From a virus: 18,012 bases of DNA. The translations under genes and the position numbers were made by a program. The notes under the pieces were generated by a model. That model did no database searches and was not told the origin of the DNA. It was given only the letters and a program-made list of their open reading frames with translations. Of the stretch, positions 3,792 through 3,881 are shown piece by piece. Numbering within the stretch: the first letter of the stretch is position 1; every line of letters begins with the position of its first letter. Where the stretch lies: the UHGV virus genome UHGV-0176909. One strand, given 5' to 3'.

Positions 3792-3881
3792 ATGCAAGCA
3801 CCTTTATTGTGATGTATGCTTGCATTATATACACTGTACACACATACAAGCAAGCATAAAACTAAAACAAAATGCTTGCAT
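3792..3881. repeat. Array of four copies of a 10-bp quasi-palindrome (ATGCTTGCAT / ATGCAAGCAT) in a divergent control region
   Basis: Exact ATGCTTGCAT at 3816..3825 and 3872..3881. Inverted versions ATGCAAGCA at 3792..3800 and CAAGCAT at 3852..3857. The outer ATGC...GCAT arms are self-complementary. All copies lie in the 156-bp interval between the divergent starts at 3790 (minus) and 3947 (plus). Confidence 0.6.
3804..3853. promoter_or_regulatory. Candidate overlapping divergent promoters in the repeat region
   Basis: Minus strand: perfect -10 TATAAT (plus 3824..3829) with -35-like TTGCTT about 18 nt upstream (plus 3848..3853). Plus strand: -35 TTATTG (3804..3809) and -10 TATATA (3826..3831), 16-nt spacer. 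The 3816..3825 repeat copy overlaps both. Hexamers assigned by eye. Confidence 0.4.

Follow-up and report, generated by a model that had tools for sequence, protein, structure and literature searches.

What do four short quasi-palindromes, packed into 90 bp between two divergent genes of a prophage, do there, and which protein reads them? The window analyzed here, a single stretch of 18,012 nucleotides, represents the late and immI regions of a P22-like (Lederbergvirus) prophage in minus-strand reading. Its gene order starts on the minus strand with the terminase, portal and coat genes and leads to a gene 16-like DNA-transfer protein. The genes around the site array, in order of coordinates, are as follows.

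778-1722, minus strand: Ant
within 1725-1949, minus strand: Arc
1977-2231, plus strand: Mnt
2231-2767, plus strand: ClpP-like gene
2822-3790, minus strand: 322-aa P63C-domain protein, the candidate binder and regulated gene
3947-4135, plus strand: 62-aa hydrophobic cargo protein with a GTG start (phrog_21338)
4153-6066, minus strand: gene 16-like DNA-transfer protein

The ClpP-like serine-protease homologue (178 aa; PF00574) shows a domain-level match to models of phage head-maturation proteases; because the start of its gene overlaps the mnt stop codon, it is placed inside the immI region and not in the head gene cluster. The Arc domain occupies residues 25-74 of the 74-aa ORF at 1725-1949 (minus strand), and the true Arc start is probably an internal codon of this ORF. 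Comparison of the ClpP-like, P63C and cargo proteins with the anti-phage defence profiles of PADLOC-DB gave no match, and NCBIfam profiles returned nothing informative for the same three proteins.

The motif ATGCWWGCAT, with one mismatch allowed, occurs in the 18-kb window at 3792-3801, 3816-3825, 3848-3857 and 3872-3881, and nowhere else. The original prediction had the number of sites right but under-called two of them, as 3792-3800 and 3852-3857; the length of 156 bp that it gave for the intergenic region housing the sites (3791-3946) is correct. Two copies, at 3816-3825 and 3872-3881, are exact (ATGCTTGCAT), while the other two match at 9 of 10 positions in the opposite orientation (ATGCAAGCAC at 3792-3801 and AAGCAAGCAT at 3848-3857). 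The start-to-start spacing of the sites is 24, 32 and 24 bp, and their AA and TT centres alternate; the sites form two inverted pairs within a larger dyad, the whole intergenic region being a large imperfect dyad with its centre near 3837.

It should be asked whether such a cluster could be a product of chance, or a functionless remnant of local duplication. The motif count as such is not above expectation (4 matches versus 4.6 expected in 18 kb, at up to one mismatch), and one of 2000 dinucleotide-preserving shuffles did reach a cluster of four within 100 bp. Yet all four matches lie inside 90 bp, the spacers between them are not repeats of one another, the site columns are under purifying selection, and different phyla share the array, with spacers that are unrelated (see below). 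These comparative data effectively refute the idea of a chance cluster, which we regard as scarcely conceivable. In ON470589, a related prophage record of 45.9 kb, the same four sites are accompanied by just three scattered one-mismatch matches; both there and in the window, the motif is clustered, and the similar density throughout the genome that would have refuted the original prediction is not seen. Operators of the Arc and Mnt system of immI were considered as an identity for the sites and rejected: the Arc and Mnt genes (PF03869) are separate, the P63C protein has no ribbon-helix-helix match in Pfam, and ATGCWWGCAT is absent at Pant/Pmnt (1949-1977).

The position of the sites relative to the 322-aa gene can be summarized by listing them with the adjoining promoter elements, reading downstream along the strand of this gene. 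The four sites are designated A to D.

3872-3881: site A (distal), ATGCAAGCAT on the P63C-gene strand, first site of a quartet conserved in 71 unique arrays; centre at about -59.5 with respect to the predicted P63C start and at about -41.5 with respect to that of the cargo gene
3848-3857: site B, ATGCTTGCTT on the P63C-gene strand, overlapping the -35 hexamer
3848-3853, minus strand: putative -35 hexamer TTGCTT of the P63C promoter, read from the sequence, with an 18-nt spacer to the -10 hexamer
3824-3829, minus strand: -10 hexamer TATAAT of the P63C promoter, whose last two bases are the first two of site C
3816-3825: site C, ATGCAAGCAT on the P63C-gene strand, spanning about -8 to +2 of the P63C promoter
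3799-3805, minus strand: Shine-Dalgarno sequence AAAGGTG of the P63C gene, overlapping the first bases of site D
3792-3801: site D, GTGCTTGCAT on the P63C-gene strand, filling the Shine-Dalgarno-to-ATG spacer

Because a consensus promoter and terminator scan of 3650-4200 returned nothing, the promoters of the P63C and cargo genes were predicted by comparison with relatives. With promoter elements read in this way, transcription of the P63C gene would start near 3817, and the site centres would fall near -59.5, -35.5, -3.5 and +20.5. The -35 hexamer of the window is weak, with 3 of 6 consensus positions. Near-palindromes cover the predicted -35, -10 and start of the gene next to which they lie, as in an autoregulatory operator array, and their arrangement on this promoter is a geometry of repression. 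The minus-strand part of the original prediction holds well: 3816-3825 overlaps the -10 hexamer and the predicted transcription start, and 3792-3801 lies between the Shine-Dalgarno sequence and the ATG. The plus-strand part fares less well, since a plus-strand promoter with a site inside its spacer is unsupported by the consensus scan, and the site at 3872-3881, previously assigned to the leader of the small-protein gene, lies instead upstream of the predicted cargo promoter, with its centre at about -41.5.

A LexA (SOS) box was also considered. The sequence CTGT-N8-ACAA at 3834-3849, located in the P63C promoter spacer, matches CTGT-N8-ACAG at 7 of 8 positions; this element varies in relatives (CTGC in locus L021), and the identity was rejected. 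An ACAGTG just upstream of the -10 hexamer recurs in enterobacterial relatives (L026-L029, L059, L061 and L066), without being strictly conserved. To our knowledge, the consensuses of sigma-54, CRP and other host factors have no convincing match in the array.

Seventy-five viral loci with relatives of the 322-aa protein (52-100% identity) were fetched by protein similarity alone, and the same quartet was found upstream in such loci even where flanks and spacers are unrelated; alignments of distant homologues were used for the scans that extend this result. Among 51 unique upstream regions of the window's clade, likewise retrieved by protein, 45 have at least three GCAAGC/GCTTGC hexamers within 135 nt, and 50 have at least two (the chance expectation is about 0.07). 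When repeated 8-mers were counted de novo, 125 of 186 unique upstream regions had one present at least four times, versus 7 of 186 shuffled regions, and the repeated 8-mers mostly contain GCAAGC. The quartet is oriented AA,TT,AA,TT in relatives, and in 71 unique quartets the start-to-start spacing is 23-24 bp for A-B, 31-32 bp for B-C and 23-24 bp for C-D. The B-C distance is 31-32 bp in 63 of the 71 arrays; in rare arrays it is 22 bp, i.e., one helical turn shorter, and TTGACA then precedes site B.

The association of the sites with promoter and translation signals is conserved as well. The four bases before site C, together with its first two, read TAnnAT (T in 64, A in 64, A in 64 and T in 70 of 71 arrays), which by its sequence is the signature of a putative sigma-70 -10 box fused to site C. 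A purine-rich, Shine-Dalgarno-like aaaGG precedes site D across the 71 arrays of the family, and in 68 of them the end of site D is at -2 to +1 nt from the start codon. In 29 unique P22-like copies, 2 of 40 site columns are variable versus 39 of 117 non-site columns (p = 2.7e-4), which points to purifying selection on the site columns in P22-like phages. The divergent gene is absent in most relatives; the ancestral role of the array would be the control of the P63C gene itself. Thus, the sites are kept while their surroundings diverge, and the motif varies by subfamily (in counts that ignore phylogeny), the pattern of conservation sought for an autoregulatory array.

Inverted repeats next to a start codon could also act in RNA, with hairpins in read-through transcripts sequestering the P63C ribosome-binding site or signaling processing or termination. 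On the late-operon strand, gene 16 precedes the array region, and the read-through RNA from 3895 to 3775 (minus strand) folds at -45.3 kcal/mol (z = -5.4), with predicted pairing of A with D and of B with C, and with the Shine-Dalgarno sequence and AUG buried. However, the fusion of the -10 box to site C puts the predicted start inside C, and the gene's own mRNA, devoid of the 5' arms, is predicted to be unstructured (z = -0.57). Moreover, it is the sequence and not the pairing that is conserved: position 2 of A and position 9 of B form an uncompensated T-T in 31 of 71 arrays. The individual 10-mers are palindromes in themselves, the B-C distance is quantized by about one turn of the DNA helix, and in many relatives a terminator lies just upstream of the array. 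A search of Rfam 15 recognized no family, the only hits being to miRNA-precursor models at 19-27 bits versus thresholds of 79-249. We therefore judge a primary role in RNA to be improbable; a possible secondary effect is that the ribosome-binding site is sequestered in read-through transcripts of the late operon.

The linkage of the motif to one gene family is apparent when the search is started from DNA. A scan of viral contigs for ATGCAAGCAT-N10-20-ATGCTTGC gave 120 matches, 90 of which are directly beside a P63C homologue; the remaining matches look like chance occurrences inside genes. With a stricter palindromic pair and one genome per species, 43 of 68 matches adjoin P63C genes. The other 25, which have no P63C gene, are mostly isolated hairpins in Firmicutes and Bacteroidota, several of them followed by T runs; judged by eye, they look terminator-like. 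The P63C genes with the paired motif span alpha-, beta-, gamma- and delta-proteobacteria, Acidobacteriota, Dadabacteria and Oscillospiraceae, and the hosts of array and P63C gene together include Pseudomonas, Burkholderiales, Sphingomonas, Caulobacterales, Acidobacteriota, Dadabacteria, Syntrophaceae and Oscillospiraceae. Because the P63C gene is the only homologous neighbour common to all inspected arrays, its product is the leading candidate for the binder.

Two observations may be added here. Perfect ATGCAAGCAT-N12-15-ATGCTTGCAT palindromes without a nearby P63C gene occur in Firmicutes and Bacteroidota (L361, L376, L382, L387, L392, L401, L411 and L413); with runs of A and T at their flanks, most of them resemble intrinsic terminators. 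In locus L113 (about 5100-5270), a P63C homologue is truncated at its N-terminus and the array is missing; upstream of the truncated gene lies the apparent 3' end of an insertion-sequence transposase gene.

The 322-aa protein has a C-terminal P63C domain (PF10546; 52.7 bits versus a cut-off of 26.1, residues 199-286) and belongs over its full length to phrog_2384 (E = 1.7e-104), a family of unknown function. P63C reportedly occurs as an accessory domain of phage regulator proteins of the Bro-N, KilA-N and ANT types (Pfam PF10546; Iyer, Koonin and Aravind, 2002). The family was sampled here as 1682 homologues, with 1363 representatives of clusters at 50% identity. The part of the protein that attracts attention as a possible DNA-binding element is at the other end:

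3677-3763, minus strand: codons 10-38 of the 322-aa gene, basic two-helix motif KAKGGIARAKSLTKEQRSEIAKKAAAARW, the proposed operator-reading module

In this N-terminal motif, KGG-ARA...SEIAKKAAAARW, residues G13, G14, R17, A30, R37 and W38 are invariant. In a mosaic homologue, residues 1-39 (100%) and the intergenic region are identical, while the remainder of the protein is about 45% identical. Six homologues without the motif have 0-1 hexamers upstream and no array. At least three GCWWGC sites are found in 106 of 125 regions whose protein has an RW-ending motif versus 8 of 55 regions without it, a comparison that ignores phylogeny; the co-inheritance of N-terminus and array could reflect mere physical adjacency. 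Because of the association of the RW motif with the array, the mosaic homologue and the lack of an array beside motif-less homologues, we propose that the basic two-helix peptide (residues ~10-38) is the most likely reading head. The peptide, like the small partner protein described below, matched no Pfam family (E < 0.01) and no PDB entry (E < 0.5).

An alternative reading head would be the weakly Bro-N-like, beta-rich domain at residues ~40-135. The AF2 model of the 322-aa protein (mean pLDDT 74) has helices at 11-20 and 23-38, a beta-rich region at 43-134 and a helical C-terminal half; compared with the PDB, the model gave nothing significant. In BFVD, Foldseek finds weak matches of residues ~40-135 to Ant-N, Bro-N and "repressor domain" viral proteins (E 0.08-1.2, target-normalized TM-score up to 0.50 for the Ant-N/Bro-N matches), and no Bro-N- or Ant-type likeness is significant, all having E >= 0.001. 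By hhalign, the stretch CYVLDD..KT.VVSK.G falls on the Bro-N domain of the window's Ant, at a non-significant probability of 0.4%. Pfam searches with E up to 10 gave no Bro-N (PF02498) or KilA-N match in the P63C protein.

The subfamilies of P63C proteins provide another line of comparison. Those with a different N-terminal helix 2 carry other repeats at a similar promoter-proximal position: TGCACGCA/TGCGTGCA (L311, L297, L286 and L309), TTGCACGT..ACGTGCA (L337, L338, L355 and L356), GATAGAT/ATCTATC (L287, L304, L333 and L348), GCTAAC (L336 and L343) and GCAAGT. In a subgroup whose motif ends in ...AALAKAEIAKLP, the GCAAGC half-sites are kept but abut one another, at 0-4 bp apart. For swap experiments, these repeats provide specificity variants that exist in nature. 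Furthermore, many non-enteric genomes have, immediately after the P63C gene, a convergent gene for a protein of 70-100 aa (loci L362, L368, L384, L390, L393, L403, L404, L406, L414, L420 and L426 among them). The C-terminal end of this small partner protein, GGxKGGKARAxKLTxEERSEIAKKAAxxRW, is the same motif as that of the P63C N-terminus, and a conserved element GGTAGTG(T/G)(C/G)TCAGTTTGAA lies ~50-60 nt upstream of the partner gene start.

It follows that one has to weigh whether the sites are operators for a different binder, i.e., a host transcription factor, another phage regulator or the small KGG...ARW partner. A recognized DNA-binding domain is absent from the P63C protein in Pfam searches, and in the many genomes that have the convergent gene its product could be the binder or a co-binder. 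On the other hand, an identical 10-mer from Enterobacteria to Acidobacteriota speaks against a lineage-specific host factor. That the repeats change with the P63C subfamily, and that the P63C gene is the constant neighbour of the inspected arrays, speaks against other binders in general. In the window, the motif occurs only once, in the P63C protein, and there is no partner gene. We consider a different binder unlikely. The original prediction of an operator array around the promoter of the 322-aa gene is thus supported by the cross-phylum linkage to P63C, the purifying selection and the subfamily-specific repeats. As for the two candidate binders named at that time, the family-wide array, the selection on site columns and the subfamily-specific motif favour the 322-aa protein over a host factor.

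In P22-like phages, the array has a second neighbour, a slot for small cargo genes, with the following elements.

3882-3946, plus strand: conserved leader of the cargo slot, 65 nt
3906-3911, plus strand: candidate cargo -10 box CATTAT
3935-3941, plus strand: cargo ribosome-binding site AAGGAGG

The cargo ORF is hypervariable between otherwise near-identical P22-like prophages (loci L001-L090), with at least 11 unrelated small proteins found at the slot, most of which have a signal peptide or transmembrane helices. The boundary of the exchange is right at the start codon, after the conserved leader, ribosome-binding site and GTG. Phage P22 has sieA at this position. The full module is present in 66 of 5426 complete E. 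coli genomes, and ~150 further complete E. coli genomes have only the last ~48 nt of the leader (window 3903-3950), without P63C or the array. In locus L358 (2481-2548), again without P63C, a helix-turn-helix gene precedes a leader and a 62-aa cargo gene identical to those of the window, which have a promoter-like TTGATA-17-CATTAT whose CATTAT is shared with the window. The predicted cargo promoter of the window has no -35 box at that distance and has site A instead, centred ~41.5 bp upstream of the predicted start near 3918. A position of about -41.5 is the classical one for class II activators. Because of this position of site A, the array may control both directions, which suggests that the P63C protein may also control the cargo slot, possibly by activation.

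The placement of site A also bears on another possibility, that the P63C protein binds but that the array serves mainly for activation, for assembly of a nucleoprotein complex in replication, partition or recombination, or as a decoy. Four evenly phased palindromes and a large dyad do resemble iteron- or centromere-like arrays, and site A at -41.5 of the cargo promoter fits activation. In all clades, however, the sites are locked to the P63C -35, -10, start and Shine-Dalgarno-to-ATG spacer, and the scan of ON470589 found no further arrays elsewhere in the phage. We give little credence to a main role of this kind.

Negative autoregulation by the P63C protein through the four sites is, in our opinion, the best explanation of the locus, and we hold it with moderate confidence. 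What the comparison shows is where the sites lie, how they are conserved and arranged, and that they are linked to the gene family; that the P63C protein binds them, in which oligomeric state and with which sign of regulation, and where transcription starts, we infer. The four 10-bp quasi-palindromes would be operators on double-stranded DNA for the 322-aa P63C-family protein encoded next to them. The sigma-70 promoter of its gene would be bracketed by sites B and C, B on the -35 hexamer and C from inside the -10 hexamer over the transcription start, with site D in the Shine-Dalgarno-to-ATG DNA and site A one pair-spacing further upstream. Occupancy by the P63C protein would exclude or trap RNA polymerase and so lead to negative autoregulation; each palindrome would probably be bound by a dimer of the protein, or each 34-bp inverted pair (A-B and C-D) by a higher oligomer. 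In P22-like phages, the array adjoins, in back-to-back arrangement, the conserved -10 box, leader and ribosome-binding site that would drive the slot for small membrane or secreted proteins.

A bolder version of this model is offered here only as a speculation, possible but in our opinion rather doubtful. The sequence KGG-x-ARA-x2-L(S/T)-x-E-x-R-S-E-I-A-x-K-A-A-x-A-R-W, found at the N-terminus of P63C proteins and the C-terminus of the partner, might be an undescribed portable DNA-binding module that reads a near-invariant ATGCWWGCAT across phyla, and the P63C protein of P22-like phages might repress its own gene and activate, from about -41.5, a recombination-swappable slot for superinfection-exclusion-like membrane proteins at the sieA position.

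Prophages and mobile elements commonly encode P63C-domain proteins. A 10-bp operator, a four-site architecture and a candidate 30-residue reading head turn a family known from annotation only into a testable regulator. An understanding of the P63C cassette beside the cargo slot could reveal how exchangeable genes for exclusion or defence are regulated in prophages, and the cassette, with its operator, promoter and leader in a compact unit, could also find use as a part in engineering. Literature searches with P63C, the motif strings and KilA-N/Mx8 found no function, DNA target or operator for P63C proteins, and no solved structure, Pfam model or paper on the N-terminal module was found.

Regulators that control their own gene through operators in its promoter are a well-known kind of system. 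As in the OR/PRM-PR region of lambda cI and the operators of P22 c2, several short near-palindromes lie here by the gene of the (putative) regulator and over its -35 and -10; both the lambdoid immunity operators and the array are located between back-to-back transcription units, and both have one site at about -42 from the neighbouring promoter. In lambda, the site at about -42 gives activation of PRM. Unlike the lambdoid operators, the array has an unrelated site sequence, consists of four 10-bp sites in two inverted pairs (24/32/24 bp) rather than three 17-bp sites, and places one site in the Shine-Dalgarno-to-ATG spacer; its candidate binder lacks a helix-turn-helix domain, and homology of this protein to cI or Cro is not detectable. 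The Pant/Pmnt region of P22 immI (Arc and Mnt; window 1725-2231) is similar in being a small regulatory cassette with opposed promoters in the same late-region neighbourhood. Arc and Mnt, however, are ribbon-helix-helix proteins (PF03869) with operators of their own, whereas the array travels with P63C where no inspected neighbour was Arc or Mnt. With phage regulators of the Bro-N, KilA-N and ANT types, the 322-aa protein shares the C-terminal P63C domain but, unlike Bro-N and KilA-N regulators, has no Pfam match to either of these domains. What appears to be undescribed is the binder family with its candidate DNA-binding peptide, the near-identity of the operator across phyla and the coupling of the array to a swappable cargo slot.
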